DNA of 64,000 bases from an uncultured Actinomycetes bacterium. Its GTDB lineage: Bacteria > Actinomycetota > Coriobacteriia > Anaerosomatales > CAVRZR01. This document shows positions 15,686-61,874 of this stretch, in pieces. The notes beneath the pieces are model-generated. The model had not been told where the DNA came from and searched no databases. It saw nothing but the letters and a program-made list of their open reading frames with translations. How positions within the stretch are numbered: the first letter of the stretch is position 1; each line of letters begins with the position of its first letter. A program made the translations under genes and the position numbers. Location of the stretch: NCBI GenBank assembly GCA_963809535.1, contig CAWEJW010000001.1, positions 617,354-681,353 on the forward strand. The letters run 5' to 3'.

Positions 15686-16033
15686 TCAGACGGTGACCTT
15701 CGCCGTCCAGAGACCGTGGAGGTTGCAGTGCTCCATGGCTGTGAGCACGGTACCCGCGTCAAGTCGGACAACGGCGGTCACGTCTGGGTCGAGTGCGACT
15801 GGAGAGAAGTCGAAACGTGCGATCGGCGAGTCGCCGGCGAAGAGCATGACCCACTCGATGAAGTGGTCAGGCTGGTTCGGATGTGGAACGTAGTGGCCGA
15901 CCTTGACGGTCACTTTGACCGTGTCGCCGGTGCGCTCCGCAGCGATGTAGGGCGTGTGCTTCTTCTGGAAGTCGTCCGCGGCCTCGAGGTCGGTGATGTA
16001 GTACACGGGGCCGAGGATCGGTGCGTCGCTCAT
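15686..16033 (-). CDS. 1Fe superoxide reductase (neelaredoxin / desulfoferrodoxin centre II type)
   Basis: Start placed at the internal ATG with AGGAGG upstream. Motifs KKHTPYI, HPNQPDHFIEWV and CNLHGLW are the SOR iron-ligand motifs. Confidence 0.85.
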   Translation of the reverse strand: MSDAPILGPVYYITDLEAADDFQKKHTPYIAAERTGDTVKVTVKVGHYVPHPNQPDHFIEWVMLFAGDSPIARFDFSPVALDPDVTAVVRLDAGTVLTAMEHCNLHGLWTAKVTV

Positions 16034-16188
16034 TCGGTCCTCCTGAGTCTCGTTCCGTCTGTCCGGCAGAACGCCGGTCATGGCGTATATACCCGCCCGG
16101 CGCCATACCTTCCGAGCTTCGGAGATTCGGTCTACGCACCCGGCCTCGAGTAGAATCCAGACAGTCTCACCAGCACCCGAGGAGTGAC

Positions 16189-16776
16189 ATGACGGACCGG
16201 GCACCGAACACTCTTGCGGGACGCGACACCGCCGTCCTCGTTCTGATCGACATGCAGGAGAGACTCGCTGCTGCAATGTCGGATCGTGAGCGGGTGCTGG
16301 CGGCTGCCGTGCGCATGACGCGCGTGTTCGCGCTCGTGGGGGCACCGATCATGTTCACCCGCCAGTATCCCGAGGGGCTCGGGCCCACCGAGTCCGTGCT
16401 CGAGGATGTGCTGCTCGGGCTCGCCGAGGAGGGCGCGACGGTCATCGGCGTGGACAAGGCAGCGTTCTGCGCCTGTCAGGAGCCAGGTTTCTTGGATGCT
16501 CTCGGGGCGCGAGACCGCCCGCAGGTTGTGCTCGCAGGTATGGAGACCCATATCTGCGTCACGCAGACTGCACTCGACCTCGCGACGCGCGGCTTTCAGG
16601 TGCACGTGGCGGCGGACGCATGCTGCTCGCGAGACGTGATGATGCACGACATCGCGCTGGAGCGTCTCCGCTCGGCGGGGGTGGTCGTCACCTCCTCGGA
16701 ATCAGTGATGTACGAACTTGTCGGGCGCGCAGCCACGGAGGAGTTCCGATCGCTGCTGCGAATCGTGAAGAGCTGA
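16189..16776 (+). CDS. isochorismatase-family hydrolase
   Basis: TAVLVLIDMQ...G.ETHICV.QTALD. TAGAAT at 16151-16156 and GAGGAG before the internal ATG. Confidence 0.75.
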   Translation: MTDRAPNTLAGRDTAVLVLIDMQERLAAAMSDRERVLAAAVRMTRVFALVGAPIMFTRQYPEGLGPTESVLEDVLLGLAEEGATVIGVDKAAFCACQEPGFLDALGARDRPQVVLAGMETHICVTQTALDLATRGFQVHVAADACCSRDVMMHDIALERLRSAGVVVTSSESVMYELVGRAATEEFRSLLRIVKS

Positions 16777-24960: not shown

Positions 24961-27900
24961 ATGGGGAAGGCTCGACACGCGCTGAGTCGCTGGCAGCTTG
25001 CACCCGCGGACGCTTCGGCCGTACACAGGCTCGCATCAGCGGTCGGTCTGTCCGAGATCACGGCGCGAGTCCTCGTCGGCCGCGGGATGACCGATCCCGA
25101 GACTGCCGAGCGCTTCCTTTCGCCCGATCTTGAGCGTGACTGGCTCGACCCGTCCCTGATCCCGGGCATGTCCGAGGCTGCCGACCGGGTTGCCCAAGCC
25201 GCCGGCTCGCACGAACGCGTCGTGGTCTTCGGCGACTTCGACCTGGACGGGATCGCGTCGGCTGCGCTTACCGCTCTCGGCCTGCGGGCCATGGGTGCGG
25301 ACGTCCGGGCAATCGTGCCGCACCGATTCCGGGAGGGGTACGGCCTATCACCGGCTGCGCTTACGCGCGTGTTCGCCGCCCATCCCGACCTCGTCGTCAC
25401 CGTCGATTGCGGAATCTCGGCCAGAGCCGAGGTCGCGGTGCTGGCAGCGCGGGGAGTCGCATGCGTCGTCACCGACCATCACGAACCCGGCCGGGACCTG
25501 CCTCCAGACATTCCGGTTGCGAACCCCAAACTCGACCCCGCTTGTCCATCGCACGCCCTTGCGGGCGCGGGCGTCGCTCTGAAGCTCGTGCAGGCGGTCG
25601 GCGAGCGCCTCGGCTTCCCGGACGTGTGGCGTGACCTTGTGGACCTCGCCACCCTGGGGACGGTCGCGGACATCGTCCCCCTCACGGGCGAGAACCGCGC
25701 GCTCGTCTCGGCCGGCCTTCGAGCGATGAGCGCCGCGCCGCGGCTCGGCATCGCAGCTCTCGCCTCCGCGGCCGGCATCTCACTCGAGTCACTCGATGCC
25801 GACAACATCGCGTTCGCGCTGGCGCCCCGCCTCAACGCGCCGGGGCGCATGGGCGATCCCGACGACGCCCTTCAGCTGCTCCTCACTGACGATTCGGTCC
25901 TCGCCGAGCAACTCGCGCTTTCCCTGGACGAGCAGAACCGCGCGCGCCAGACCAGCGAGCAGGACCTGACCGAGGCGGCGCTCGCCCAAGCGGAGAGGGT
26001 CTACGCAGGTGAGCGGGCGCTCGTGCTGGCCGGGGAAGGCTGGCACGAGGGCGTGAAGGGCATCGTTGCGTCCCGCGTCGCCGCGGAGTACGGGGTCCCG
26101 ACCCTGCTCTTCACCATCGAGGACGGTGAGGCCCGAGGCTCTGGGCGGACGGCGGGCTCCGTCGACCTCTTCCGCGCGCTGTCGGACGCGAGTTCGTGCC
26201 TCACGCGCTATGGAGGTCATGCGGCAGCCGTGGGATGCGCGCTTCCCCAGGGATCGCTCGACCAGTTCCGGCGCGACTTGCTGGAGGTGCTCGACGCGCT
26301 CCCAGCAGAGGAGCTGGCCGTCGAGTTGCGCTACGACGCCGACATCGCTCTGGAGGACGTGGGTCTGGAGCTCGCGGCCGAGCTCGAACGGTTGGCGCCA
26401 TACGGTTCGGGAAACCCCAAACCGATCCTCGCCACCCGGTCGGTCTTCATGAATGGGCGGCAGCGAGTGGGTCGGACCGGCAGTCACCTGCGCTTCATGG
26501 CGTTCGATGGCGGAGCGTCCGTGCCGGCGATCGCCTTCAGATGTCGAGACATCGAAGAAGTCGTCGCCAAGGACGGTCCCATGGACATCGCGTTCGAGAT
26601 CGCGGCCGACGAATGGCGCGGTCGCCGACGCGTCCAGCTCCTGGTGCGCGACATGAAGGACTCGTCGGTCGCGGGCGGTGTCGAGGAGCCCCTCACCTCG
26701 ATCGGCATACTCATCGAGGACCTCTTCGAGCGCGCCGACGAGATCATCGCCCGTGAGGAATACGCCGGTATCGGCGACGCCGAGTCCTTCCACACGAAGC
26801 TGGCTGGCGTCACCTTCGAAGGGCGACAGGACGTTCTGGCCCGGCTGGCGCTGGGTACCCCTTTGCGTCTGGAGCGCCAGCCCTCGAATGAGCACGACAC
26901 GAACGCGATCGCTCTCTTCGATCCATTCGGGGACCAGGTAGGCTTCTTCAACCGAAGACTCTCGGCAGCGCTCGCGCCGGTCATCGACTCCGGAACCACC
27001 TACGACGTTGAAGTCACGGACGTGACCGGGGGGGACGAAGGCCGCAGCCTCGGCGTGAACGTCTTGGTGAGCCAGCGGGGAGCGAGCCAGGCAGCCGAGG
27101 CCTTCGCCGAGCTACGGGCACAGCGGCGGGCCAAACTCGCGGCCATGCCGGCGTCAGAGTTGGATGCAGAGCTCACGCGCCTCTTCCTCGGCGACAGGCG
27201 GCTCCACGCGGCACAAGCGCGGGCGCTCGCGCATCTTGCGCAAGGTGCGAACACGCTGCTCGTCATGGCAACGGGCCGCGGCAAGTCCGTTGTCTTCCAC
27301 CTCCACGCTGCGCGCTTGGCGCTTCGCGACGCTCGCGCGTCCGTGTTCGTGTACCCGCTTAGGGCGCTCGTATCGGATCAGGCCTTCCACCTCGAGAACA
27401 CGTTCGCCGAAGCGGGATTGGCGGTGCGCACGCTCACAGGGGAGACTTCTCCCGGGGCGCGTGACGAGACGTTCGCGGACCTGACCGAGGGCTCGCTCGA
27501 CGTCGTTCTCACGACACCCGAGTTCCTCGACCACCATGCCGCTCGCTTCGCCGATGCTGCCCGCGTCGGCTTCGTTGTCGTCGATGAAGCCCACCACGTC
27601 GGCATGGCCAGAGCCGGACATCGGCCGGCGTACGCCAGACTCGACCGCGCGCTCGATGCCCTGGGCAACCCTCTCGTGCTTGCGGCGAGCGCCACCGCGG
27701 GGGATGAGACTGCTCGGGCGATACGGTCGGTTTTGGGCATTGACAAGGTCGTCGCGGACCCAACCGTGCGCGACAACCTTCGAATCGAGGACAAGCGAGA
27801 CCACGCCGACAAGGACACGTACATCTGCTCGCTGGCGGCGAGCGGCGAGAAGATGATCGTCTACGTGAACTCGCGTGAGCAGTCAGTGCGCCTCGCGCGC

Positions 27901-28608
27901 ATGTTGCGAAAGCGGGTACCCGGGGTCGCCGCGCGCACGGCCTTCTACAACGGCGGGTTGTCGCGTGAGGCGCGCGCCGCCATCGAGCACGCGTTCCGCA
28001 CCGGCGAGGTCTCGGCTGTCGTCGCCACAAGCGCGTTCGGGGAGGGAGTCAACATCCCCGACATTCGACACGTCGTGCACTTCCATCTGCCCTTTGGGGA
28101 AGTCGAGTTCAACCAGATGTCCGGTCGGGCAGGTCGCGACGGGGCCTCCGCGTCCGTGCACCTTCTCTTCGGGAAGAAGGATGCGCGCATCAATGAGGCC
28201 ATCCTCTCGGCCCTGGCACCTGGGCGAGAGGACCTGGCTGCGCTCTACCTCGTGCTACGCGACGAACAAGCGGCCTCGGGCGGGAGTTTCGAGGTCACGA
28301 ATGCCGAACTCGCCGAGCGGGCGCATCGCCGTCGCAAGCAGTTCGCGCTCGACGAGCGCGGCGTCTCTTCGGCCCTCGGGATCCTCCGCGAGTTGGGGCT
28401 GGTGGACGGGGAGGGGCACGGGTCCTATCGGCGACTCACCCTCCTGCCAGCTCCCGCCGAGAAGCTCGATCTGTCCGACTCAGTGCGCTACGCCGAGGGA
28501 CTCGATGAGATCGCCGAGTTCGGAGAGTTCAAACAGTGGGTGTTCTCGGCTGAACCGGCGTTGTTGCTCGAGCGGTTCAACCGTCCTATCCTGCCAACAC
28601 AGCTCTGA
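24961..28608 (+). CDS. recJ: RecJ exonuclease fused to a HIRAN domain and a RecQ-like DEAH helicase (1215 aa)
   Basis: N-terminus has the DHH family motifs (FGDFDLDG, DHH in VVTDHHEP, DHHA1 region). The middle (about 26788-27075) is HIRAN-like: LAGVTFEGRQD...L.RQPSNEHD.NAI.LF. The C-terminus has helicase motifs I (ATGRGKS), II (VVDEAHHV) and VI (QMSGRAGRDG). Confidence 0.85.
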   Translation: MGKARHALSRWQLAPADASAVHRLASAVGLSEITARVLVGRGMTDPETAERFLSPDLERDWLDPSLIPGMSEAADRVAQAAGSHERVVVFGDFDLDGIASAALTALGLRAMGADVRAIVPHRFREGYGLSPAALTRVFAAHPDLVVTVDCGISARAEVAVLAARGVACVVTDHHEPGRDLPPDIPVANPKLDPACPSHALAGAGVALKLVQAVGERLGFPDVWRDLVDLATLGTVADIVPLTGENRALVSAGLRAMSAAPRLGIAALASAAGISLESLDADNIAFALAPRLNAPGRMGDPDDALQLLLTDDSVLAEQLALSLDEQNRARQTSEQDLTEAALAQAERVYAGERALVLAGEGWHEGVKGIVASRVAAEYGVPTLLFTIEDGEARGSGRTAGSVDLFRALSDASSCLTRYGGHAAAVGCALPQGSLDQFRRDLLEVLDALPAEELAVELRYDADIALEDVGLELAAELERLAPYGSGNPKPILATRSVFMNGRQRVGRTGSHLRFMAFDGGASVPAIAFRCRDIEEVVAKDGPMDIAFEIAADEWRGRRRVQLLVRDMKDSSVAGGVEEPLTSIGILIEDLFERADEIIAREEYAGIGDAESFHTKLAGVTFEGRQDVLARLALGTPLRLERQPSNEHDTNAIALFDPFGDQVGFFNRRLSAALAPVIDSGTTYDVEVTDVTGGDEGRSLGVNVLVSQRGASQAAEAFAELRAQRRAKLAAMPASELDAELTRLFLGDRRLHAAQARALAHLAQGANTLLVMATGRGKSVVFHLHAARLALRDARASVFVYPLRALVSDQAFHLENTFAEAGLAVRTLTGETSPGARDETFADLTEGSLDVVLTTPEFLDHHAARFADAARVGFVVVDEAHHVGMARAGHRPAYARLDRALDALGNPLVLAASATAGDETARAIRSVLGIDKVVADPTVRDNLRIEDKRDHADKDTYICSLAASGEKMIVYVNSREQSVRLARMLRKRVPGVAARTAFYNGGLSREARAAIEHAFRTGEVSAVVATSAFGEGVNIPDIRHVVHFHLPFGEVEFNQMSGRAGRDGASASVHLLFGKKDARINEAILSALAPGREDLAALYLVLRDEQAASGGSFEVTNAELAERAHRRRKQFALDERGVSSALGILRELGLVDGEGHGSYRRLTLLPAPAEKLDLSDSVRYAEGLDEIAEFGEFKQWVFSAEPALLLERFNRPILPTQL

Positions 28609-31615: not shown

Positions 31616-31825
31616 CCGACGTAGCGGCGAACCGCGGGCAACGGGGTTCGCCTCCCGAAGGTTGAGCGGGGGAACCAGATCGCTCGGGGGAGCAGTAAGG
31701 TTCCCGAACCCTGCCAAGCCACGGTTGGGTCTCTCGGTCTTGGGGCCGGCATCCTGTCACGGATGGGAGGTGCTGATAGCGGGGAAGTGACAGCAGATGA
31801 TCTTGCGATCAAGGAGAAGAAGACA
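31616..31825 (+). promoter_or_regulatory. ~200-nt structured 5' leader of the hexahaem cytochrome gene (class unknown)
   Basis: Stems are GGCGAACC(31626-33)/GGTTCGCC(31645-52), GAGCG/CGCTC and GGGAACC/GGTTCCC (mutually nested or pseudoknotted), and CTGTCAC(31754-60)/GTGACAG(31786-92) just before AAGGAG. Confidence 0.3.
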
Positions 31826-33307
31826 ATGAAGAAGGTTCTTATCGTTGTGGCGCTTGCAGTGGCGTTGACCTTTGCGATAACCGTCGTTGCATTCGCCGAT
31901 CACTCGCCGTCGTTCTACATCCAGTGGAACGAAGAGGGCGGCTTTGAAGGTGCGAACGCGTTCGTCACGAGCCCGCACGCCGGGTACGTCGAGGGCACAC
32001 AGAAGTGCGGCGTGTGCCACGCCGTCCACCGTGCAGCGGTTCAAGGTCTGGGTTGGGAGCCAGGCGGTCAGCTCTATCCTGCCGAGATCGGCGGAGAGAA
32101 CAGGGCCGCGCGGCTGCAGTACAGCGCACCGTTCTTGGGCGAAACACAGATGCTGCTGCAGACTCCCGTCTCGGGAAATTGTGACTACTGCCACATCACG
32201 ACCTCGATCGGCGCGATCCAGATCTATGCAGGTAAGGTCAAGTATCGCCTCGAGGCCAACGACGCTAATGGTGGCTCGAACTGGGAAGGTGGGTTCGCCC
32301 ACAACAACGCATGCACGGCGTGCCACGCGGTGCATGGTGCGTTCGCCAACCCGTTCGTCGCTGCTCCGACCGCAGCCGACAACGTCGTGTTCCAGGGCCC
32401 CTTGGCCGCCAAGGTCGTGAAGGGTTACGCCAAGAACAAGAGCACGACATGGCAGCGCGAGATCTACCTTGCCGGCACGAACTACGAGTCGAGCCTGTTC
32501 CCCGGCGTCCAGCCGGTCGTATCCTCAGCGGTCGACCCGCTGAACACGCCGCTCTTCGCGTCGAAGGCTGACGCGCTGGCGGGCACGAACGCTCGGGTCG
32601 GTGCTGATGTTGCCGACGCGCAGGTCAGCGCGCACTGCACGTTCTGCCACGAGAACTACGGCTACGCTGCAGAGGCCATGAACAACAGGGAGTTCTTCGG
32701 CAAGACGGTCGCCGAGGTTGCAGCGATCACCGGCACGAACAACCAACTGGAGTCCTACAAGCAGGGCGCGGGCCTCTTCCAGGGTCAGTGGAACATCAGG
32801 CTGGTTGCTGACGGCCCGCAGATCAGCGCACGCAACGCCTACAGCACGACGCCTACCGGCGGTACTGCTCCGTGGCTTGGCCCGGGCTTTGATGGGCACG
32901 TCGCCGTCAAGAACCACCCGATGAAGAGGGCCGTCACCACTGGCTGGTCCTCGGCTGGTGGCGCCGCTATCGCCCAGGTCGCATTCAAGGGCTCGGATAC
33001 GTGCCGTTCCTGTCACGACGCAGGTGTCGAGGGCGCTGGTGGAGTCATCATCCAGTCGTTCCCGCACTTCACGCCTGGCTACTTCAAGTTCCTGATTTCC
33101 GCGGACAATCTGGGCGCGGAGATGATGAACATCAACGCGATCCTCAAGGCGAACCCCAGGGCAATGACCCAGGGGGTTCTCGACACGGTCTGGGCAACGC
33201 TGGACGACCCGGCTGTCCAGGAAGCTGCTGAGTGCACGTCTGACGGTGCCTGCCTGAAGTGCCACATCAACGCTGACAAGAGCGCTGGTATTGGCCTTAC
33301 GTTCTAG
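31826..33307 (+). CDS. secreted hexahaem c-type cytochrome (493 aa)
   Basis: AAGGAG sits 9 nt upstream. Sec signal MKKVLIVVALAVALTFAITVVAFA/DH. Six CxxCH motifs: CGVCH, CDYCH, CTACH, CTFCH, CRSCH, CLKCH. Confidence 0.85.
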   Translation: MKKVLIVVALAVALTFAITVVAFADHSPSFYIQWNEEGGFEGANAFVTSPHAGYVEGTQKCGVCHAVHRAAVQGLGWEPGGQLYPAEIGGENRAARLQYSAPFLGETQMLLQTPVSGNCDYCHITTSIGAIQIYAGKVKYRLEANDANGGSNWEGGFAHNNACTACHAVHGAFANPFVAAPTAADNVVFQGPLAAKVVKGYAKNKSTTWQREIYLAGTNYESSLFPGVQPVVSSAVDPLNTPLFASKADALAGTNARVGADVADAQVSAHCTFCHENYGYAAEAMNNREFFGKTVAEVAAITGTNNQLESYKQGAGLFQGQWNIRLVADGPQISARNAYSTTPTGGTAPWLGPGFDGHVAVKNHPMKRAVTTGWSSAGGAAIAQVAFKGSDTCRSCHDAGVEGAGGVIIQSFPHFTPGYFKFLISADNLGAEMMNINAILKANPRAMTQGVLDTVWATLDDPAVQEAAECTSDGACLKCHINADKSAGIGLTF

Positions 33308-33346
33308 GCTTGACACTACAGACTGCTACTGACGCAGTCGAAGACA

Positions 33347-33373
33347 GGGTGGCCCTCCTTCGGGGGGGCCACC
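33347..33373 (+). terminator. hairpin after the hexahaem gene (partial terminator or stabiliser)
   Basis: GGGTGGCCC-loop-GGGCCACC followed by TTGCGTCTGTGTG. Confidence 0.5.
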
Positions 33374-33439
33374 TTGCGTCTGTGTGCGGCGCATGGGTCC
33401 TCCCATGTCGCGCTGGGTACCGTGATAGGATTCTTGAGG

Positions 33440-34444
33440 ATGACTTCCGGAATGGTGCCGAGGTCGATGGAACCGCAGGACGCAAAGCCAATGTCACGCA
33501 GACGGCGGGGAATCATCCTGGGCGTCGCCGGGGCTGTTCTGGTGTTGCTCGTTCTAGGGGCGGCCGCCTCGTCCCTTCCGTCCGGCTGCTCTTCTGTCTG
33601 TCACCGCGCCCAAGCCAAGACCCTCGCTTCGAGCGATCACAGCAATGTGTCCTGCTACCGTTGCCACCTGGCGCGCGGCGCCTGGAGCTACCCCGGCTTC
33701 ATTGGATCGATCCTGTTTCGCATGAATACTCGTGCGCTCACAGGCTCGGGCTACCACACTGCGGCCGTTCAAACTTCTCGGAGCGCGTGCATCCAGTGTC
33801 ATGAGGGGACATTCGAGCGGACGAGCCAATCCGGCGGGATCCGCATCAAGCACTCGAGCTGCGCACCCGGCCCCACGTGCGACCCATGCCATGCGGCCGT
33901 CGCTCACGGCTCGGCAGTGCGCTGGGACGGCACGTACTCGATGGATGACTGCGTTGCGTGCCACAGGGCGCAGACGGCTCCCACGGCGTGCGACACGTGC
34001 CATACCCAGAAGGCGCGGGCCGCTCGCACGCGCGGGGCGTGGCAGGTCACCCACGGCCCGAACTGGGAGAAGACGCACGGCCTGGGAGATCTGGATACCT
34101 GCAGCACCTGTCACGGTGAGGGGTTCTGCGAGAGGTGCCACAAGGCCCCTGTGCCCCATCCTGAGGACTGGGGCGGCACCCACGGGCAGTACGCGATCGA
34201 GGACCGAGCTTCGTGTGAGACCTGCCACTCCTCCAGCGCCTGGTGCGCCTCCTGCCATGGGACGCAGATGCCTCACCCGAGCGGATTCCTGCAAGAACAC
34301 AGCTCGATCGCCAGCGGCCTGGTCGATCCGGAGTGCACACACTGTCACGACGAGAGCGACTGCGCCACCTGCCACACCTACCACGTGCATCCGGGCGGTG
34401 CCTCTGGTGTCCCCGTGCTCCCAACCGCTACCGATGCCCGATGA
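33440..34444 (+). CDS. membrane-anchored multihaem c-type cytochrome (11 CxxCH + 1 CX3CH), NapC/NirT-like topology
   Basis: An N-terminal RRRR-TM helix (GIILGVAGAVLVLLVLGAAA) is followed at once by CSSVCH. Paired motifs such as CSTCHGEGFCERCH, CETCHSSSAWCASCH and CTHCHDESDCATCH follow. Start ambiguous, 33440-33491. Confidence 0.85.
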   Translation: MTSGMVPRSMEPQDAKPMSRRRRGIILGVAGAVLVLLVLGAAASSLPSGCSSVCHRAQAKTLASSDHSNVSCYRCHLARGAWSYPGFIGSILFRMNTRALTGSGYHTAAVQTSRSACIQCHEGTFERTSQSGGIRIKHSSCAPGPTCDPCHAAVAHGSAVRWDGTYSMDDCVACHRAQTAPTACDTCHTQKARAARTRGAWQVTHGPNWEKTHGLGDLDTCSTCHGEGFCERCHKAPVPHPEDWGGTHGQYAIEDRASCETCHSSSAWCASCHGTQMPHPSGFLQEHSSIASGLVDPECTHCHDESDCATCHTYHVHPGGASGVPVLPTATDAR

Positions 34445-35730
34445 CCGCCCTAGGGCCTGCATCCTCACTCCGGTTATTCGGTCTCACAGTGGGAGGCCTG
34501 GACTTCAATGGTGCCTACAATTCCTTCCTGAAGGCCCTGCGCGAGCCATCGGCGGATCCGACGTTGACGCTGCTCTTTGTTGCGGCTGCGGCGCTACTCG
34601 TCCTGCTCATCGCGTTGGCAGTCGCCATGGTGGCGACGCCGTCTCGCAAGCGGGTCGTGAAGGTCCGCCGATACCGCGGGTCGCCCGAGGAGATCGCGGC
34701 TGCCCGTGCCGCGGTTGCTGCGCGAGCCGCTTCGGCGGCCGATGAAGGCGACCGCGAGGAGAGCCCGGCGAAGCCCGAAAAGGGAGGACCTCGACCGTTC
34801 TGGTCCAGGCCTACGTTCTTCATCGTCGTTGGCGTCGTGATCCTGGCACTGGCCGCCTATGGTGCCACGTCCACCAACGCCTACTGCGCCCGCACGTGTC
34901 ACGGCGGCACGCCCGCGGTGCGTTCGGCGACCAAGGTCGGACATGCCCCGTGCACCTCGTGTCATGAGGACAACGCGATCACCGGGGTCTTCGACAACAC
35001 CGTGGCTCGCGCCGCGATGCTGGCGGGCCAGGCCGCAGGCCGCAGTCCAGATACCCCGAATGTCGCCGCCGAATCGGCGGCTTGCCTGCACTGTCACGAA
35101 GCGGTGAAGACGGGCATCGTCGAGTCGTCGTCCGGGGTCAAGATGTCCCACGCCGAACCTCTGAAAGCCGGGCAGCCCTGCACCAGTTGCCACCCGGACA
35201 CAGGTCACGTGAGTGCGGGATACACCATGGGCATGCCTCCGTGCCTTCCGTGCCACGATGGCAAGACGGCGCCGATCACGTGCAGTCTGTGCCATCGAGG
35301 GGACCCCATGAGTCCAGTCGTGGCCGCTGCCTCAAACGAGGCGTCGGGCGGAGTGAGCTACCCGGCGGTCCGGGCGGCAAACCATGAATGCGGGGGCTGC
35401 CACGATCAAGAGCAGACGTGCGATCCCTGTCACGGCATCCGGATGCCCCATAGCCAGACGTTCATCGAGGGCGGCCATGCGAGATACGCCGCGTGGAACA
35501 ATAAGCAGACCTACTGCTCGCGCTGCCACCAACTTTCCACCTGTGCGGGGAAGTGCCACACGTCGTTCAACGGGCCGACGGGGCACAGCGCTGATTGGGA
35601 GGTCATGCACCAGGACTCTCCATGGGATTCGGGGTGCCCCTGCCACAGCGCGAGAAGCCCGCGTGCCGGCCCGCTGTGCTACCGGTGTCACGATCCGAAG
35701 ACGAAAGAGCTGCTCCCCCTGAGACCCTGA
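34441..35730 (+). CDS. membrane-anchored multihaem c-type cytochrome, paralog of the preceding gene (9 CxxCH + 2 CX3CH + 1 degenerate CPCH)
   Basis: ATGA overlap with the upstream stop. Two TM helices, the second followed at once by CARTCH. Collinear with the upstream paralog (MPPCLPCHDGKTAPITCSLCH versus MDDCVACHRAQTAPTACDTCH). Confidence 0.85.
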   Translation: MTALGPASSLRLFGLTVGGLDFNGAYNSFLKALREPSADPTLTLLFVAAAALLVLLIALAVAMVATPSRKRVVKVRRYRGSPEEIAAARAAVAARAASAADEGDREESPAKPEKGGPRPFWSRPTFFIVVGVVILALAAYGATSTNAYCARTCHGGTPAVRSATKVGHAPCTSCHEDNAITGVFDNTVARAAMLAGQAAGRSPDTPNVAAESAACLHCHEAVKTGIVESSSGVKMSHAEPLKAGQPCTSCHPDTGHVSAGYTMGMPPCLPCHDGKTAPITCSLCHRGDPMSPVVAAASNEASGGVSYPAVRAANHECGGCHDQEQTCDPCHGIRMPHSQTFIEGGHARYAAWNNKQTYCSRCHQLSTCAGKCHTSFNGPTGHSADWEVMHQDSPWDSGCPCHSARSPRAGPLCYRCHDPKTKELLPLRP

Positions 35731-35764
35731 GGCATCGACAGGCGCTTTGTGCCGCGACCACAGC

Positions 35765-35794
35765 GGCCCGCCGAATCGCTCTCCAGGGCGGGCC
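35765..35794 (+). terminator. possible terminator hairpin after the cytochrome operon
   Basis: GGCCCGCC-14 nt-GGCGGGCC followed by TTGCTGCATCTTC. The loop is long and the T tract weak. Confidence 0.3.
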
Positions 35795-36010
35795 TTGCTG
35801 CATCTTCGGGACGGATCACTTCAGCGGTGCCGCGAAGGTGCCGATACTCTGGCACGGACGGACATGTGGCTAACCCCGGTCCTCTTCTCCTGCCGGGGCT
35901 GCCGACCGCAGCGACCCTCGCCTGTTACGGGGGTCGTTCTGCGTCCTAGGGGCGCGGGGCCCAGGGAGGTCGAGCGTGCTGCCGACCAGATGCGCCCATC
36001 TGCGGACGCG

Positions 36011-37099
36011 TCATTTGCTTTCGGGGATACGCAGGATCTGGATCCGGTTGTTCGTCGTGTCCGCTACGGCAAACCAGTCGCGTTCCTTGTCATAAGCGAT
36101 GCCCGTTGGGTTGTTGAACAGGCCGTCTGTCGCGCCGTAGTCGCCGTACATGGCCGACGTCTGGTCGTGCTCCTTTGCCACTTTGCCGGTTTTGGCATCC
36201 AGCACGATGATCTTGAACTTGAACGCGTCGACAAGCACGATCCTGCCCTTGGCATCCATCGTCATCCCTGTGGGCATCTCGAAGGGATTCTTCGGGTCGG
36301 GTGTGCGCCGAATGTCGACTGTCGAGGAATCCTCGCGATTGGGAGCCGTGCCGGATATCCAGAGCAGGCGGCCGTCTTCTGAGTACGCCTTCACGCGTCG
36401 GTTCTGAGTGTCGGAGACATAGAGGGTGCCATCCGGACCGAGAAGGATCCCGTGCACCACGTCGAACTGCTCCTTGTCGGTCCCGCGGGTGCCGCCAAGC
36501 TGCATCAAGATCTGGTCGTCAGGCGTGAACACCGCGATGCCCTTGGTACTGCCGACGGCGATCTTGCCGTCACGAACGTCGACGACATTCGGCAGCTCCA
36601 CCCGCCATTTGGTCACGAACGTCCCGTCTGGACGGAACTCAAGAACCTGCCCGCCGAAGTCGGCGGTCCATAGATTGCCGTCCTCGTCCACCGAGATCCC
36701 CTCGAGTGAAACGATGCCCTTGGGTTCGATGACCCGCTTGACCGTGCCATTGGGATTGAACCCGACGATGTGGGAGTGTCCAGAGATCGCCCAGATCGTG
36801 CCATCGGGGCCAATGGCGACGTCGGTGGGTGCTTCGAGTTGCTGGTCAGCTTGGGTGCCCCACCCGTAGAGCGACCTGACCCACGTGACTCCGGATGGCA
36901 GCTCGGCCTTCGTCGGAGCTGCTGAGGGACGGGTCAATCTGAGCACGCCGTACGCCACGACGGCGAGAAGCAGCACGAGTACCCCAAGGATAACGGCGAG
37001 CACTCGGCGCTGTCGTCGATTGTCGACGTACTCGACGACGGTTTCGGCGTATTCCCCAGGCTCTTGGATTCCGGGCGTTGTCTCGGGCGTCTCGCTCAT
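36011..37099 (-). CDS. membrane-anchored NHL-repeat beta-propeller protein
   Basis: GGAGGA SD and an N-terminal TM helix (VLAVILGVLVLLLAVVAYGVL). Repeated blades follow: P.GIA..DG.I.V.D..N.RV, e.g. GPDGTLYVSDTQNRRVKAY and FNNPTGIAYDKERDWFAVADTTNNRIQIL. Confidence 0.8.
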   Translation of the reverse strand: MSETPETTPGIQEPGEYAETVVEYVDNRRQRRVLAVILGVLVLLLAVVAYGVLRLTRPSAAPTKAELPSGVTWVRSLYGWGTQADQQLEAPTDVAIGPDGTIWAISGHSHIVGFNPNGTVKRVIEPKGIVSLEGISVDEDGNLWTADFGGQVLEFRPDGTFVTKWRVELPNVVDVRDGKIAVGSTKGIAVFTPDDQILMQLGGTRGTDKEQFDVVHGILLGPDGTLYVSDTQNRRVKAYSEDGRLLWISGTAPNREDSSTVDIRRTPDPKNPFEMPTGMTMDAKGRIVLVDAFKFKIIVLDAKTGKVAKEHDQTSAMYGDYGATDGLFNNPTGIAYDKERDWFAVADTTNNRIQILRIPESK

Positions 37100-37130
37100 G
37101 AGTCAGTCCTCCAGGCGCGGCTGGCGCAGT

Positions 37131-37907
37131 CTACTTGTCCGTGGCTTCGGCCTTCTTGAGGCCTTCTGTGGCGGAGGCGTCGTCAGGCAGGAACTGCAGC
37201 GCGTACTTGAAATCCTTGGCGGCTGAAGTCTTGTCGCCGGCACCCAACTCGGCCCATCCCCGCAATACGATGATATCGGCCGCCTGCTCGTCCAGCGCCA
37301 GTGCCGCATTGAAGGATTGGATCGCTTCCTTGTACTTCTTCAGGTTCTGCTGTGCAGTGCCTCGCAGCACGAGCAGCCTGATGGTCGTACTGTTGTTCTG
37401 CGCCTCGTCGGGGACACGAATCCCCTTCTGGAGGTTCGCGTTGAACTCCTCTTTCAGCAACGCCTCGTCCTTCAAGAGGTATGCCTGGGAGCGCGCCAAA
37501 GCCTCCGCGTTCCTTCCTTCGAGGATGAGGAGGTGGAGGTCGACGTTGTTGACCTCACGGATGGTCTTGTCGGTGACTTGCGTGCGAGCGCGCACCAGGG
37601 CTTCCTGCGCGCCTTCCTTGTCGCCAACGGCGTACAACGCCTCGGCGTAGTCAGCCCACGCCTGCCCATTGCCAGGGTTCGCTTTGACAGCCGACTCGTT
37701 GGCGGCTCGCACCGACTCAGCCCAGGTACGCGGCGTGGAGCGGAAGAACACCCCCGTCAACAGAGCGTACGCAAGCACGGCCACGATCAGGCAGCCGACG
37801 CCGATGGACGCCCAGAGCAGTATGCGGGATACCCGATCTGGCGAAGACTCGAGAGGTTCTTCCACGTACTCAGGCGTCTCAGAGAATGGCGAGCCACTCA
37901 TTTGCAC
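37131..37907 (-). CDS. membrane-anchored TPR-repeat protein
   Basis: One TM helix (ILLWASIGVGCLIVAVLAYALL), then TPR-like helical repeats (AWADYAEALYAVGDKEGAQEAL; YKEAIQSFNAALALDEQ; AAKDFKYALQFLPDD). Upstream of and co-oriented with the NHL gene. Start is GTG 37907 or ATG 37901. Confidence 0.75.
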   Translation of the reverse strand: MQMSGSPFSETPEYVEEPLESSPDRVSRILLWASIGVGCLIVAVLAYALLTGVFFRSTPRTWAESVRAANESAVKANPGNGQAWADYAEALYAVGDKEGAQEALVRARTQVTDKTIREVNNVDLHLLILEGRNAEALARSQAYLLKDEALLKEEFNANLQKGIRVPDEAQNNSTTIRLLVLRGTAQQNLKKYKEAIQSFNAALALDEQAADIIVLRGWAELGAGDKTSAAKDFKYALQFLPDDASATEGLKKAEATDK

Positions 37908-38153
37908 GACCTCACTTCCCGACGCCTGCCTGCGAGCAGCCGGGCCCCCTGGGTCAGCGGCGTTCCTTCAAGTTCGACGCCTGCCCACTACGTCCTGCCG
38001 TTGTGCCCGGGCCGTCCAGTGCTTTGCGACTCCCGTGCCAGCAACAACGATACTCCCAAAGGCCGTTGGCGGGCATGATATCCATAGAAACTCCTTGGAC
38101 CGGTCTCGCCTGCGTCTTCGGGGGTCTCACATGTTGCTGACCAGCAGAATTGG

Positions 38154-38183
38154 TTGTGGGAAAGGGCGTGGACGCTCTATAAT
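38154..38183 (+). promoter_or_regulatory. candidate promoter of the large cytochrome gene (-35 TTGTGG, 18 nt, -10 TATAAT)
   Basis: TTGTGG at 38154-59 and TATAAT at 38178-83, in the 357-bp divergent region between the TPR and cytochrome genes. Confidence 0.4.
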
Positions 38184-38264
38184 GCGTGCTGAGCATCTTG
38201 GGGGGCCACGGGCGCTCTGGGGTTCCTGCACGAGTGTGACAACTGCAATTGCGAGGGTCGCCTG

Positions 38265-40982
38265 GTGAGTCGCATGGGACCGGCGCTATTTGGACGCCAC
38301 TGGGTCGTCGCGGTCTTTCTTCTAGCTGCGGCGGTCTTGGCGTTGGCGCCTTTCGCTGTCGCGGGCGTGTCAGATGTGCCAGCTGACCTCCACGCGGCTG
38401 CGGGCGCGAAGTCGCCCATCGTGGTGAGTCTGTCTTGGGCCGCCCCATCTGGGTCCTCGGTTTCCGGATACCGCGTGTACGTGGCGGAACACGAAGACGG
38501 CCCGTATGATCTGGCGACATCAACGCCCGGCTACTCGTTTGACTACGTTGAAGGGGAATCCGGGTGGCCCTACTACTTCCTAGTCACTTCGGTTGACGCC
38601 GACGGCGTGGAGTCCGCCGCAGCCCAGGCTGGTCCAGTCGCGTCCAAGTGGATCGAGTCGCCACATGGCGCCTTCTCGGAAACCAGCCACAACTGCGAGC
38701 ATTGTCATTCGGTTCACGACGCGGACGGCAATCTTCTGCTCGATATTCTGAGGACGGATGAGGCGTCCGACACCCCAGACCAGTCCAGGGCCTGTTTCCG
38801 ATGTCATGGAGGGCAGTCAGCCGATTCGGCGAACGTCGAGGACGGCTCTCGCGACTCCTTCGCGCTTGCCAGCGGGCATTCCGTCGATGCTTCAGCAAAT
38901 GCCGGCTTGATCAGCGCGTGCTCGAGCTGCCATTGGGTTCACGGCGACTCCGAGGTTCGCCCGATGATCCCAGCATTGACGGTCAATGGACTCTCGGTAG
39001 CATCCAGCGGGCCCGAGCTGTGTTACGCGTGCCACGACGCAAAGAACACTTGGTACGACGGCAACTACCCCTCGCCATCGTCCCCTCCGCGAGACGCCTC
39101 AGGGTACCCGGTGAGCGGAACCTGGATGGGCCCGGCGACCTACAAGGGTGGGTCCAACGCGCACCGGCTCATTCCTGAGACGACGCAGACTGCGGGGTTT
39201 GTGGCGCCCGTCCGTCGTGCGCAGGGAGACTGCCTGTACTGCCACGCGGCCCACAGGGGCTCGAACAAGTACGACTCCCTCTTGACGACCTTCACCCCGT
39301 CGACCACGTCATCGCTGGCCTCGGATCAGAGGCACGGCACCTACGCGGCGCTATGTCTCGACTGTCACGGTGGATCCGTGCCGAGCGGCTTCGAGACGGC
39401 GCCGACGGATATCGCGCAGTTCGTCACCACGTCGACAGCAGACGCCACGTCGGGCCATCGAATCAAGACAGCCGGCGGGACCCTCCCCGTAGGGGCGCCG
39501 CTGCCCTGCTATGAGTGTCACAACCCCCACGGATCGACTCGCGGGAATGCGAGCATGCTCTCCGATGTCGTGGGCGGGAGTCTTGAGACGAGTAGCGACG
39601 CCGGAGTGCGGCATTTCTGCTTCAGCTGCCATACGACCTCCGACACGGTTCGCGGGTGGGACAGCGATGAGTCGATCTTCTCTCCGGTCGGAGAAACCGA
39701 CTCCGTTGTCGGGATTGCGCGGACCGGAGGCGTGCTTCGGCTGCCGCCTCTGGCGGCTCACTCCCAGGCGAGTGCCACTTCGTGCTATGCGTGTCATGGC
39801 TCCGACTATCGCACCGGCGGCAGCAATGTCCACAACCCGGGTCTTGGCGGCTACGACCCCGAGGCGCACACCTCGACGGTAACCACCGCGACGATCACGA
39901 TCCTCGGGACGCCTTACACGGACCGCGCATGCGCAGACTGCCATGTTCTCGAGCTGGGCCCGCTCCACATGCCTCCAGCCGACTGCGCAGACTGCCACGA
40001 CACGCTCGTGCCGATCCCCGGCGGCTGGGACAAGGGCTGCGTCCAGGCAGGTTGTCATCCGGCAGGCTCACCGCTCGAGATCCATGTCGACATCGACGCC
40101 TCACACATGCGCTCGGCGGAGCCTACGGCCGCCGACACCTGCTTCGTCTCCGAGTGCCACACGGGCGGTGGTAGCCTCGCGGACATCCACGCGAACAAGC
40201 AGAGCTGCGACACGTGCCACAGCTTGGACAGAGCGCCGACCGGCAACTGCGAAGCGAGCGGCTGCCATGATTTGGGCAAACCACACGAAGATCTGACGAT
40301 CGCCCACACGTCGAGCGGTGGCACCGACTTCGTCTCGGTCGGGATCCAGGACAGGCGCCACGGCTACTACGACGGCGTGACCGCAAACTGCTCGGATTGC
40401 CACATCACAAGCCTGATCCCGCTGCACTCGGGCGATTGTCAGACGTGCCACACGAGCTCCGTGAGCGAAGCCGTCAAGGACGCTATCGCGAACGACGACA
40501 CGAACTGCACGTCGTGCCACCCGGGCCACCACAGCGGAGATATCGACGCTCACTACAGCGTGGTCAGCGACGGCTGCCACAAGTGCCACAACGCGGATCC
40601 CTATGTGGACTCGTCCAACGTCACCTGCACGGGATGCCACACGCCACCCAACAGGGAGACGTTCGTCAACCCTGAGCGCATCACTGGGACCATCCGCCTT
40701 GTCTTTGGCGACTGCGATGTGAGTGGCAGCGCTCCGCCTGAGCATTCATATGCCGTGTGGACGGTGCGGAGTGGCGGGGCAGACGGGCCGGTTGTGGCTT
40801 CTGGCGGGGGCTTCGACGGCAGCGGGTGGGATGGCATCGATGATGTCATGGTCTTCGCACAGCCACAGCCATATCACGTCTACATCGAGTGGTACGACAG
40901 GGAGTCGGACAACTCGGGGGAGAGCTTCTTCTCTCAGGTAGACGTGACCACGTCAGGCCAGCTCGCAACGTTGCACTACTAG
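38265..40982 (+). CDS. large exported multihaem c-type cytochrome with N-terminal FN3-like domain (17 CxxCH + 3 CX4CH; 905 aa)
   Basis: Signal/anchor HWVVAVFLLAAAVLALAPFAVAG. FN3-like segment (SLSWAAPSGSSVSGYRVYV...YYFLVTSVDADGVES). Then 17 CxxCH motifs plus CVQAGCH, CFVSECH and CEASGCH, and a haem-free beta-rich C-terminal ~100 aa. Confidence 0.85.
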   Translation: MSRMGPALFGRHWVVAVFLLAAAVLALAPFAVAGVSDVPADLHAAAGAKSPIVVSLSWAAPSGSSVSGYRVYVAEHEDGPYDLATSTPGYSFDYVEGESGWPYYFLVTSVDADGVESAAAQAGPVASKWIESPHGAFSETSHNCEHCHSVHDADGNLLLDILRTDEASDTPDQSRACFRCHGGQSADSANVEDGSRDSFALASGHSVDASANAGLISACSSCHWVHGDSEVRPMIPALTVNGLSVASSGPELCYACHDAKNTWYDGNYPSPSSPPRDASGYPVSGTWMGPATYKGGSNAHRLIPETTQTAGFVAPVRRAQGDCLYCHAAHRGSNKYDSLLTTFTPSTTSSLASDQRHGTYAALCLDCHGGSVPSGFETAPTDIAQFVTTSTADATSGHRIKTAGGTLPVGAPLPCYECHNPHGSTRGNASMLSDVVGGSLETSSDAGVRHFCFSCHTTSDTVRGWDSDESIFSPVGETDSVVGIARTGGVLRLPPLAAHSQASATSCYACHGSDYRTGGSNVHNPGLGGYDPEAHTSTVTTATITILGTPYTDRACADCHVLELGPLHMPPADCADCHDTLVPIPGGWDKGCVQAGCHPAGSPLEIHVDIDASHMRSAEPTAADTCFVSECHTGGGSLADIHANKQSCDTCHSLDRAPTGNCEASGCHDLGKPHEDLTIAHTSSGGTDFVSVGIQDRRHGYYDGVTANCSDCHITSLIPLHSGDCQTCHTSSVSEAVKDAIANDDTNCTSCHPGHHSGDIDAHYSVVSDGCHKCHNADPYVDSSNVTCTGCHTPPNRETFVNPERITGTIRLVFGDCDVSGSAPPEHSYAVWTVRSGGADGPVVASGGGFDGSGWDGIDDVMVFAQPQPYHVYIEWYDRESDNSGESFFSQVDVTTSGQLATLHY

Positions 40983-44240: not shown

Positions 44241-44538
44241 TGCGGTAGCGACCGCGGGTGCGGCCAGCGCCCGTGGCGTGGCCCCTGCGTCGTGTGCGTT
44301 GTGGGGGTCAGAAAGAGAGGGTAGACTCAAGACAGGCTTCGCCTTGCTGGTGACTCCGGCACATACGGTCGAACCAACACTTCTGACACGGGAGCCTCAT
44401 CATCCCGCGGTGGACAGGTATCCCGGCGACGGGAAGCTGGAAGCCGATGGTGCGGGCACCCACCTGCCGAGGCAGGTTCACCGCGTCGGGGACACAGCAA
44501 GGCGAGGCACACCTGTTCACAGCAGTGGAGGCAGCAGA

Positions 44539-45162
44539 ATGCGCAGCAGATTCGTAGCAGTGGCCCTGGTACTCGCCATTGGCCTGGCAACGTTCCTTCT
44601 CGTCGGCTGCGGTGGCAGCAACGCAGAGGAGCCGGCGACCACCGACACGACCGCGCAGACGGCCGTCACGCCAGCAGCTCCCGCGAGTGCGGCAGTCGCT
44701 CCCGTGGTGGATCGCTCTCCTGCGGAGGAGGTCGTCTACGAGCCATTCCCGACAGATCCTCAGATCACCCCCAAGCCGGTACTCCAGCTCCTCGAGGCGA
44801 AGCAGCCGATGATCGTCTACTTCTATGACACGACCCAGAAGACGTCGAATGACGAGAAGGAAGGCGTCGACGGGGAGGGTGGTCTGGACTTGATCATGTC
44901 CGACTACCGTGGCGCGATCGATCTCGTGTCTTTTGACGTGGGCAAGTTCGTGAAGACCAGCTCCACTGGCAAGATCACTGTCGACCCCGCCTTTTCCGAC
45001 AGCGCGTCGGGCAAACAGACCGCGTCTCTGGCTGCCGAACTCGGTGTCGACTTCACGCCCTATGTCGTCATTGTGGATGGCGACGGCTACATCATCGCGC
45101 GGTTCCGAGGCTGGGAAGACACCGAGAACATCGAGCGCGAGGTTCTGCGCGCCACCAGCTAG
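44539..45162 (+). CDS. lipoprotein, possibly thioredoxin-fold
   Basis: GGAGG SD before the internal ATG. Lipobox LLVGCGG, an Ala/Pro/Thr linker, then a domain ending ...TPYVVIVDGDGYIIARFRGW. Confidence 0.6.
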   Translation: MRSRFVAVALVLAIGLATFLLVGCGGSNAEEPATTDTTAQTAVTPAAPASAAVAPVVDRSPAEEVVYEPFPTDPQITPKPVLQLLEAKQPMIVYFYDTTQKTSNDEKEGVDGEGGLDLIMSDYRGAIDLVSFDVGKFVKTSSTGKITVDPAFSDSASGKQTASLAAELGVDFTPYVVIVDGDGYIIARFRGWEDTENIEREVLRATS

Positions 45163-55405: not shown

Positions 55406-56101
55406 GTGGCCGCGATGCGACGCACACCGGCCCGGCTCGGCGTGATCTTGCTGCTGCTAGTTGCACTCGTGCTAGCACAGAACGCCGCTGCGTCGCTCGC
55501 GCCGAGGGGTTCTTCGGCACAAACGGGGCGGCTCATCGGCCGCGCGGGCTTCGCATACTTGTCCGGGATTCGCACGTTCGCGGCGGCCGTGTTGTGGAAT
55601 CGGCTCGAACCGCAGTTCCACGAGTATTACGCCGACAAGAATCTTGAAGAACAGACGCAGATGCTCCCCACAATCAGGCTTGTGCAGATGCTCGACCCGC
55701 AATTCGTGCAGTCGTACTACATCGCGTCTTGGGTGCTGGCGCGACGTGGCAAGGCTGGCCAAGGGCTCGACAATGCGCGTGAAGGCGTTTCCCAGAACCC
55801 CTCTTCCGGTCTTCTGCGATCTAATCTCGTCCAGGTCATGCTGCTGGAGGACAAGGTCAAGTACGCCGCCGAGGCGGTGGCACAGGCCGACGCCGGGACC
55901 GCTCCTGGCATCATCTGGGCAGACGACGCTGAGAAGTTCGAGGGCTACGCTATCTTTGCAGCCGCCTACCACGTCGCGGGACTGACGGGCAAAGAGAAGG
56001 CCGCGAGAGCAGTAGTCAGCTCGCTCGCGGGCAAGACCAGTACGTCGGGCATCGGCGGCGCAGGGCACGATCATGACGGAGATGGAACGCCGGACCATTA
56101 G
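55406..56101 (+). CDS. hypothetical exported/membrane-associated helical protein
   Basis: N-terminal signal/anchor, helical repeat-like body and a His/Asp/Gly tail. No family recognised. Confidence 0.45.
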   Translation: MAAMRRTPARLGVILLLLVALVLAQNAAASLAPRGSSAQTGRLIGRAGFAYLSGIRTFAAAVLWNRLEPQFHEYYADKNLEEQTQMLPTIRLVQMLDPQFVQSYYIASWVLARRGKAGQGLDNAREGVSQNPSSGLLRSNLVQVMLLEDKVKYAAEAVAQADAGTAPGIIWADDAEKFEGYAIFAAAYHVAGLTGKEKAARAVVSSLAGKTSTSGIGGAGHDHDGDGTPDH

Positions 56102-59206: not shown

Positions 59207-59335
59207 GAGTCTCTGAGTGCGCGTTGTGCCTGAATCACCATCGTGAGAGTATGAATCCGCGTGTCGCCCGACAGGGGAGAGTCGTGCGGCCGACTTGGTG
59301 CTACCCGACGGGCGAATGCGGAGGAGCTTGAATCA

Positions 59336-60136
59336 GTGACCAGCAGCGGACTCGACGACTTCTTCATCCCGGACGAGGACGACGAGGATCAGGGCACGAT
59401 GCCACCGCCTTCCGACGGTGTGACTGCCTCCGCGACCCAAGACCTTCACGCGCCCCTGGTATCAGGCACGCCCGGACCGCCCTCGGTGCCTGCTGCCGGG
59501 AAGCACGCTCCGGGAGCGCAGGGCGCATCTTCGGCGCCAGCGCCGCAGCCGATGGCGCCTCGGACAGCTCCCGCGCCTGCTCGACCTGATGCAGAGACTC
59601 AGGTCCCGGCGCGCCCGGGCTTTGCGCCCTTCCCAACGCCAGCGCCTCGCGCCGAGGCCTCGCCCGTTTCTCCTGCCACACCACCCAAGCCCGCCGCGCC
59701 CGTGTCAGCTGCGTCCGCAATCGCCGCGCCCGCTACGGCTGCGCAAACCGCTCCCACGCGCCCGGTTCGGACGCGGGAGGAGCAGCTCTCCGCGGCGTTG
59801 GCGACGTTCATGCGCGTGTCCTCGGACGTCGAGGCCGCCGCGCTCGTCAGCATCGACGGCTTCACGATGGCCTCCGCACTTCCCGCGGGGATGCAGGAGG
59901 ACCGTGTCGGCGCGATGTCCGCGGCCATCCTCGGGCTTGGCGAGCGTGCAGCTCTCGAGCTCGGACGTGGCAAGCTCTCGCAGGTCTTCATCGAGGGGGA
60001 CACGGGCTACGTTCTGCTGATGGCGGCAGGGGACAGAGCGGTGCTCACGGCGCTCGCGCGTCTCGAGGCAAAGCTCGGTCTGCTCCTCTACGACATGCGC
60101 GACGTGGCCGAAGCCATCGCCGACATCCTGGGCTAG
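59336..60136 (+). CDS. Roadblock/LC7 (MglB-like) domain protein with Pro/Ala-rich N-terminal region
   Basis: GGAGGAG sits 9 nt before GTG 59336. The C-terminal ~120 aa (VEAAALVSIDGFTMAS...MSAAILGLGERAA.ELG.G.L.QVFIEG..GYVLL...G..AVL.AL) follow the Robl/LC7 pattern. Confidence 0.7.
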   Translation: MTSSGLDDFFIPDEDDEDQGTMPPPSDGVTASATQDLHAPLVSGTPGPPSVPAAGKHAPGAQGASSAPAPQPMAPRTAPAPARPDAETQVPARPGFAPFPTPAPRAEASPVSPATPPKPAAPVSAASAIAAPATAAQTAPTRPVRTREEQLSAALATFMRVSSDVEAAALVSIDGFTMASALPAGMQEDRVGAMSAAILGLGERAALELGRGKLSQVFIEGDTGYVLLMAAGDRAVLTALARLEAKLGLLLYDMRDVAEAIADILG

Positions 60137-60170
60137 CCGAGCAGGGAACCGAAAGCGAATGACGTAGCCG

Positions 60171-61862: not shown

Positions 61863-61874
61863 GAGCCAGGCTGG

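Follow-up and report, generated by a model that had tools for sequence, protein, structure and literature searches.

How electrons leave a single-membrane bacterium to reach minerals or electrodes is, to our knowledge, poorly understood, and we know of no entry cytochrome that has been characterized in the Actinomycetota. The question is raised by two overlapping multihaem cytochrome genes, here called A and B, in a stretch of 64,000 nucleotides (the window) from an uncultured Actinomycetes bacterium of the Coriobacteriia, order Anaerosomatales (assembly GCA_963809535.1, contig CAWEJW010000001.1, positions 617,354 to 681,353). Where would electrons enter these proteins, and why does the haem motif beside the membrane helix carry three residues between its cysteines (C-x3-CH, or CX3CH) in both of them? 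The reading that best explains the data as a whole, including two different histories for the two CX3CH sites, and in which we place moderate confidence, is that A and B, translated together and anchored in the membrane, serve as the entry cytochromes of a module for extracellular electron transfer.

Relationship of A and B to NrfH

A and B are tandem, collinear paralogs, as the initial annotation of this DNA had proposed. BLASTP aligns them over 322 residues at 25% identity (E 2e-15), and the alignment of their family profiles with hhalign (probability 100%, E 5.6e-45) extends over 273 columns, from the membrane helix through the last haem. When the profile of the A family (A1, 86 sequences) was compared with the PDB, the best match was NrfH of Desulfovibrio vulgaris (2J7A_C, E 3.7e-13), with profile positions 16-152 aligned to residues 17-151, that is, to the whole NrfH chain including the helix and all four haem motifs. 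The B family profile (A2) likewise finds NrfH first (2J7A, E 9e-9), again with all four motifs aligned, and in addition matches the dodecahaem cytochrome 3OV0 of Geobacter with its C-terminal part (E 2e-7). A profile restricted to the N-terminal module of B (A5) retrieves classical tetrahaem cytochromes of the NapC/NirT, NrfH and TorC types, and for an AlphaFold2 (AF2) model of A (pLDDT, the predicted score of the local distance difference test, 85) the sole confident Foldseek match is NrfH (2VR0_F, probability 1.0). Because both family profiles match NrfH best with the motifs in register, and because the structural search with A leads to the same protein, the assignment of site 1 in A and B to haem 1 of NrfH, the quinol-proximal haem of the initial annotation, holds at the level of these profile and model comparisons. 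The NrfH module, including the geometry from helix to haem 1, is conserved across hundreds of relatives of A and B.

Both proteins carry twelve haem sites: CSSVCH and eleven CxxCH motifs in A, and CARTCH, CAGKCH, CPCH and nine CxxCH motifs in B, in the same order as in A, with the CPCH of B paired with a CTHCH of A in the profile alignment. The motif scan thus agrees with the initial annotation in the number of sites and in the CX3CH beside the helix of both proteins, and every peptide pair that it quoted was found. In the eight-haem part that follows the NrfH-like module, a paired motif, CxxCH-x4-6-CxxCH...(M/V)PH, is repeated three times. The A gene was taken to start at an ATG with an AGGA sequence 9 nucleotides upstream, although other gene callers chose 33452 or 33467, and a scan for promoters and terminators gave nothing exceeding shuffled expectation. 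We compared the window with related loci in other genomes (L001-L008), seven of which (L001, L002, L003, L005, L006, L007 and L008, from Coriobacteriia) contain the A-B tandem. The overlap of four nucleotides between the two genes, also noted initially, recurs in L001, L005, L006 and L008. Coordinates of all features are given in Table 1.

The AF2 model of A places a helix at residues 11-35, a segment that aligns with the membrane helix of NrfH, and by hydropathy only six residues separate the end of this helix from site 1; the corresponding distance from helix 2 of B is five residues. The loop between the two helices of B holds 13 K/R against 8 D/E residues, and its PSRKRVVKVRRY motif is kept in close orthologs. 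Because this loop is rich in K/R and the N-terminal tail of A carries RRRR, the positive-inside rule would place the haem domains of both proteins outside the cytoplasm. The additional helix and charged loop of B are present as described initially; they were not gained by this copy, being old traits of the B family.

Table 1. Features of the cytochrome locus, in window coordinates.
Feature	Position	Strand	Remarks
Secreted six-haem cytochrome	31763-33307	+	514 amino acids; six CxxCH; Pfam MtrC/MtrF domain II/IV, Paired_CXXCH
Gene A	33440-34444	+	334 amino acids; membrane-anchored; NrfH-like four-haem module, then eight more haem sites
A, single transmembrane helix (predicted; GIILGVAGAVLVLLVLGAAA)	33509-33568	+	RRRR just before; hydropathy, charge count
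A, haem site 1, CSSVCH (C-x3-CH)	33587-33604	+	TGC TCT TCT GTC TGT CAC
A, Met at the NrfH Asp89 column	33722-33724	+	putative distal side of haem 1; profile alignments
ATGA overlap	34441-34444	+	four bases common to the A stop codon and the B start codon
Gene B	34441-35730	+	429 amino acids; 12-site paralog of A with N-terminal extension
B, transmembrane helix 1 (predicted)	34564-34635	+	hydropathy; kept throughout the B family
B, inter-helix loop, starts PSRKRVVKVRRY	34636-34812	+	about 58-59 residues; K/R-rich; predicted cytoplasmic
B, transmembrane helix 2 (predicted)	34813-34869	+	aligned to the membrane helix of NrfH
B, haem site 1, CARTCH (C-x3-CH)	34885-34902	+	Tyr before the motif; motif scan
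B, Met193 at the NrfH Asp89 column	35017-35019	+	profile alignments
B, haem site 10, CAGKCH (C-x3-CH)	35542-35559	+	motif scan
B, haem site 11, CPCH (contracted C-x-CH)	35635-35646	+	aligns with CTHCH of A
NHL-repeat beta-propeller protein	36011-37099	-	membrane-anchored; Pfam NHL E 1.5e-18
TPR protein	37131-37907	-	membrane-anchored; Pfam TPR; occurs in loci that have the NHL protein
Secreted 905-amino-acid cytochrome	38265-40982	+	20 haem motifs; also in L008

We suggest the following scenario. The host would be a single-membrane Coriobacteriia bacterium resembling the cultured Anaerosomatales, and each of the two proteins would consist of a helix-anchored, NrfH-homologous four-haem module followed by eight haems, which in their three paired-motif repeats could act as a wire leaving the membrane. 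Menaquinol or a different membrane carrier would donate electrons to haem 1, next to the membrane, and these would run along the twelve haems to the secreted six-haem and 20-haem cytochromes encoded nearby, with the NHL and TPR proteins as possible scaffolds in the envelope.

Several observations weigh against this scenario and should be kept in mind. In Pfam searches only Cytochrome_C7 exceeds its cut-off in A and B, while the NrfH and NapC/NirT families stay below threshold: A reaches 19.2 bits on TIGR03153, where the cut-off is 134.2, and B 21.2 bits on PF03264, where it is 24.1. The structure model of B is poor (pLDDT 62), and Foldseek gave no solved relative for the eight-haem part, which otherwise shows weak similarity to c7 cytochromes and GSU1996. 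An A-B complex is no more than a suggestion, prompted by the overlapping genes and their recurrent pairing, and within the window neither cytochrome c maturation genes nor clear quinone-synthesis genes were found. The electron donor is uncertain, since quinones were not detected in either of the two cultured Anaerosomatales (PMC9686372). To these points are added two limits on the comparison of haem 1 variants, given with the counts below.

The non-detection of quinones and the scores below the PF03264 and TIGR03153 cut-offs would fit a different role, in which A and B are no quinol dehydrogenases at all: their helices would be mere anchors, the donor would be some other membrane-bound or extracytoplasmic system, for example a hydrogenase or formate dehydrogenase complex, and the NrfH-like module would be purely a wire. 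The same view can appeal to the signature of NrfH haem 1, CXXCHxM, which is absent from A and B of the window (CSSVCH, CARTCH). However, some A-type relatives keep this signature, and 28 of the 86 A-family sequences have a Lys at the column of NrfH Lys82. Conservation of the whole module, down to the spacing between helix and haem 1, also speaks against such a reduced role, and the non-detection of quinones in two isolates is no proof of their absence in this organism. We therefore regard a donor other than quinol, with the module as a plain conductor, as unlikely.

Variable cysteine spacing at the haem sites

The preferred reading of A and B as entry cytochromes has to accommodate the unusual motif at the very site where electrons would enter, and the two proteins differ in how they came by it. 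Among 81 A-type sequences with twelve sites, 80 have a canonical CxxCH at site 1, the exception being the 90% identity cluster to which the A protein of the window itself belongs. All six members of this cluster, which come from independent assemblies, carry CSSVCH, and L008, a relative at 92%, has the motif in identical codons. An error of sequencing or assembly is thereby ruled out, in agreement with the initial annotation as far as A is concerned, and so is gene conversion between A and B, as the contexts of the two motifs are unrelated (GCSSVCH and YCARTCH). Since a TCT codon is doubled in the motif, CSSVCH is, judged from its DNA, a recent one-codon duplication that has been fixed and tolerated in one species-level lineage. 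The duplication that gave rise to the two genes is ancient in comparison, because A-type and B-type proteins form separate clades in the tree. The proposal that the odd first motif had been conserved across this duplication consequently fails: the duplication is old, and orthologs of A show the canonical motif at this position, an outcome that the initial annotation had itself named as refuting.

A different picture is evident in B. The search with the B profile scanned 1.84 billion cluster representatives and yielded 586 relatives at E <= 1e-30, and 122 full-length B-types among the best 150 were used for a census of motifs. At site 1, CX3CH is found in 69 of these representatives and CX2CH in 53, so that within the B family the odd motif is indeed conserved. 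It does not vary alone. An aromatic residue precedes the motif in 75/81 CX3CH forms as opposed to 14/63 CX2CH forms, and the column of NrfH Asp89, on the probable distal side of haem 1, is occupied by His in 49/66 CX2CH forms and by Met (39/82) or His (22/82) in CX3CH forms; these association counts ignore shared ancestry. The equivalence of the Met column with NrfH Asp89 derives from alignments of low identity, and the position is accordingly treated here as putative. By a rough parsimony count on a neighbor-joining tree, site 1 of B has switched between states at least 7 times and site 11 at least 15 times. The CX3CH of B site 1 thus appears, from its distribution, to be an old and recurrent state under selection. 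Its coupling with the aromatic residue at -1 and with the change from His to Met at the probable distal position makes it likely that the ligation or the potential of haem 1 is retuned.

It could be argued that the two CX3CH sites are both adaptive and have co-adapted, the haem 1 pockets of an A-B heterodimer being retuned in parallel, for instance to the potential of a carrier or acceptor, with the insertion in A as a convergent event. Fixation of the A variant in six independent assemblies would be in keeping with this, as would the recurrence of CX3CH at haem 1 elsewhere (ImcH, CymA of Rhodoferax, one branch of MtrA and the actinobacterial NapC-like protein P0372, all discussed below) and the Met at the putative distal column of both A and B. 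Yet a Met in that column is usual in A-types with a canonical site 1 as well (72/86 sequences of the A family), A has a Gly at -1 and not the aromatic residue that accompanies CX3CH in B, and the doubled TCT codon resembles the product of replication slippage. Moreover, the change in A is a single event among 81 A-type sequences, and the chance of such an event landing on site 1 of 12 is about 1 in 12. Parallel retuning is thus a doubtful explanation, and the co-occurrence of the two CX3CH motifs in one genome is most likely a coincidence.

Sites other than the first also vary in B. Site 10, which is CAGKCH in the window, is CX2CH in 90 of the 122 representatives, CX3CH in 20, CX4CH in 11 and CXCH in one, and the longer spacings are an old trait of the B family and not, as first assumed, the result of a conversion in this copy. 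At site 11 the less expected result was obtained: the contracted CXCH is the majority state (73, as against 46 CX2CH and 3 others), and in close B orthologs G-C-x-C-H is invariant. Sites 2-6 and 8, on the other hand, are CX2CH without exception. The CPCH of the window had been described as degraded, but it retains both cysteines and the histidine, and its interpretation as a decayed site was rejected in view of this conservation. Because CXCH is conserved in 73 of 122 representatives, the contracted motif at site 11 most likely still works in haem binding, as far as its pattern of conservation can tell.

These figures also bear on the view that the variant sites bind no haem, or bind it by a single thioether, which would leave A with 11 haems and B with 9 and make the variants products of decay. 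Decay would not preserve both cysteines and the histidine, which are kept at every variant site over 30-50% divergence; without haem 1 or haem 11 the wire for electrons would be interrupted; and MmcA has been shown to carry haem at a CXXXCH motif, with a haem site of the CKCH type reported in Kuenenia according to the secondary source cited below. We consider haem-free sites improbable. The census also offers natural experiments, in close relatives set apart by nothing but their cysteine spacing at haem 1 (the one-codon change of A among them) and in the conserved CXCH site, by which the influence of the haem-binding loop on ligation and potential, and the tolerance of the haem-attachment machinery, could be tested.

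The cytochrome locus and its surroundings

The six-haem cytochrome, A, B, the NHL protein, the TPR protein and the 20-haem cytochrome form a block (31763-40982) that is flanked in the window by relA and an MBL hydrolase on one side and by hisS-aspS on the other. Homologs of the six-haem cytochrome lie directly upstream of A-B in L001, L003, L005 and L008, and the NHL protein adjoins the pair in L001, L005, L006, L007 and L008. The complete module of TPR protein, NHL protein, cytochrome, A and B is conserved in the latter five loci and partly in L002 and L003. A narrower B alignment, searched against the genome collection, recovered 3 loci. The 905-amino-acid cytochrome probably terminates the electron chain on its outer side; neither for it nor for the six-haem cytochrome were relatives with a solved structure found. 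With 586 cluster representatives of B at the threshold given above and a conserved five-gene module, the A/B family provides a defined and widespread candidate for an entry cytochrome.

The homology to NrfH might also suggest that A and B work as NrfH or NapC does, together with a periplasmic reductase that acts on nitrite, nitrate, trimethylamine N-oxide or sulfite, but this is hardly credible, as no NrfA, NapAB, TorA or MccA-type gene occurs in the window or the seven related loci, the neighbors of A and B are always multihaem cytochromes and NHL and TPR proteins, and each protein has 12 haem sites where 4 would be expected. A partner of the NrfA or Nap type was accordingly rejected, and no terminal reductase gene was found beside the module in any locus.

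The flanks of the module vary between genomes. In L006 (4068-9168) it is flanked by leuD and leuB and followed immediately downstream by another TPR-NHL-cytochrome set, and the TPR-NHL-cytochrome-A-B module as a whole behaves like a movable cassette set in different housekeeping contexts. A further B-type gene, in L004 (6982-8553; a long-read metagenome-assembled genome, MAG, of the Coriobacteriales), has only 5 intact haem motifs in one frame, reflecting either assembly frameshifts or a decaying copy. Unusual cysteine spacing extends to the companion proteins: three of the 20 motifs in the 905-amino-acid cytochrome are CX4CH (CVQAGCH, CFVSECH, CEASGCH), the small partner cytochromes of L006 and L007 also have CX4CH, and variable spacing seems to be widespread among cytochromes in this group of bacteria.

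Farther from the block, the window encodes a desulfoferrodoxin (superoxide reductase; 15686-16345, minus strand), which fits an anaerobic life, and a fusion protein of 1215 amino acids (24961-28608) that joins RecJ (DHH, DHHA1, OB) with HIRAN and a DEAD/Helicase_C helicase. A PilB-like secretion ATPase followed by a Roadblock/LC7 protein, a DUF4388 protein and a small Ras-like GTPase (57539-62402) makes up an MglA/MglB-like polarity set beside a pilus motor. Three open reading frames of 230-294 amino acids (44278-45162, 55406-56101 and 62878-63702) have no Pfam match.

Comparison with known systems

The entry module of A and B is closest to NrfH of D. vulgaris (2J7A, 2VR0), which shares with them an N-terminal helix, a haem 1 only a few residues further on, and then a further three haems whose order and spacing agree. 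One difference is the CX3CH at haem 1 of the window proteins. NrfH and NapC are tetrahaem proteins of about 160-200 amino acids with an adjacent reductase partner, whereas A and B have 12 sites in 334 and 429 amino acids and such a partner gene is found neither in the window nor in the related loci; B, unlike NrfH, has a second helix and a putative cytoplasmic loop, and A and B form a conserved tandem pair. In the number of haems they resemble GSU1996 (3OV0), to which the C-terminal part of B shows the similarity described above and with which the Cytochrome_C7 matches of both proteins are in line. GSU1996, however, is soluble and composed of four c7-like domains, while A and B are membrane-anchored, begin with the NrfH-like module and continue with paired CxxCH-x4-6-CxxCH repeats.

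With respect to the CX3CH motif, a comparison can be made with ImcH (GSU3259) of Geobacter sulfurreducens, an inner-membrane cytochrome of extracellular electron transfer that has NapC/NirT homology and begins its series of haem motifs with CXXXCH (PMC4251993). In a survey of genomes, all ImcH homologs and two CymA homologs of Rhodoferax had CX3CH beside the membrane domain (PMC6295460), and such a motif at the membrane helix is thus a known, recurring feature of quinol oxidases in electron transfer. By published description (PMC4251993, PMC6295460), ImcH resembles A and B in having this atypical motif right after the membrane domain, in having several helices, as A and B have jointly (three), and in the location of its gene near those of other multihaem cytochromes. 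It differs in being a single protein of about 500 amino acids that has 3 helices and, besides the first motif, 5-9 of the CX2CH type, compared with one helix in A, two in B and 11 further sites in each. No ImcH-like proteins were among the matches of the N-terminal B profile A5, which were exclusively classical NapC/NirT proteins; one of these, P0372, which comes from an Actinobacteria MAG and is 211 amino acids long, combines a CX3CH (CGAICH) at haem 1 with a CX4CH at the third site, and haem 1 is canonical in the other 63.

A bolder proposal can be derived from this comparison, which we put forward tentatively: A and B may form a heterodimer with three helices that oxidizes a carrier and is a Gram-positive counterpart of ImcH by convergence, with an expanded CX3CH loop at haem 1, the distal His there exchanged for Met, and with haem bound at the CXCH of the B-types, a large natural family. 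If this were true, CXCH would be common as a haem motif and no longer an isolated oddity of anammox bacteria, and the maturation system of Gram-positive bacteria would accept cysteine spacings from 1 to 4.

Precedents for the individual features come from other proteins. In MmcA, haem at CXXXCH was shown by mass spectrometry (PMC11024163). In one branch of MtrA, haem 1 has changed from Cx2CH to Cx3CH with a new distal ligand (bioRxiv 10.1101/2025.05.29.656830), and B is similar in combining Cx3CH at haem 1 with a probable replacement of the distal His; MtrA, though, is a periplasmic decahaem cytochrome of another family, and its new ligand is Cys, where the candidate in the A/B family is Met. 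The contracted CPCH of B has a parallel in a tetrahaem cytochrome of Kuenenia stuttgartiensis with a CKCH motif (Ferousi et al., 2019, as cited in PMC7096707), both being C-x-CH sites in a multihaem cytochrome with the cysteine pair and the histidine kept. The Kuenenia protein belongs to an unrelated family and organism, while in the B-types CXCH is the prevailing form at one site of a large family, where haem is presumed from conservation.

Close systems are also known from the two Anaerosomatales isolates, Anaerosoma tenue and Parvivirga hydrogeniphila. Both have a cluster of two adjacent putative quinol-oxidizing multihemes next to an MtrA homolog, and one isolate is obligately dependent on Fe(III) reduction (PMC9686372). 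The 20-haem "Q-oxidase" of Carboxydothermus ferrireducens (PMC7829351) is another close system, and the paired-motif repeats of A match an unnamed 20-haem protein (P0089, E 8e-28). Haem motifs, the A and B subfamilies, and the NHL and TPR companions are outside the discussion in these two papers. The two isolates belong to the same bacterial class as the source of A and B, and their cluster, as compared by description, fits the trio of cytochrome, A and B that is found here.

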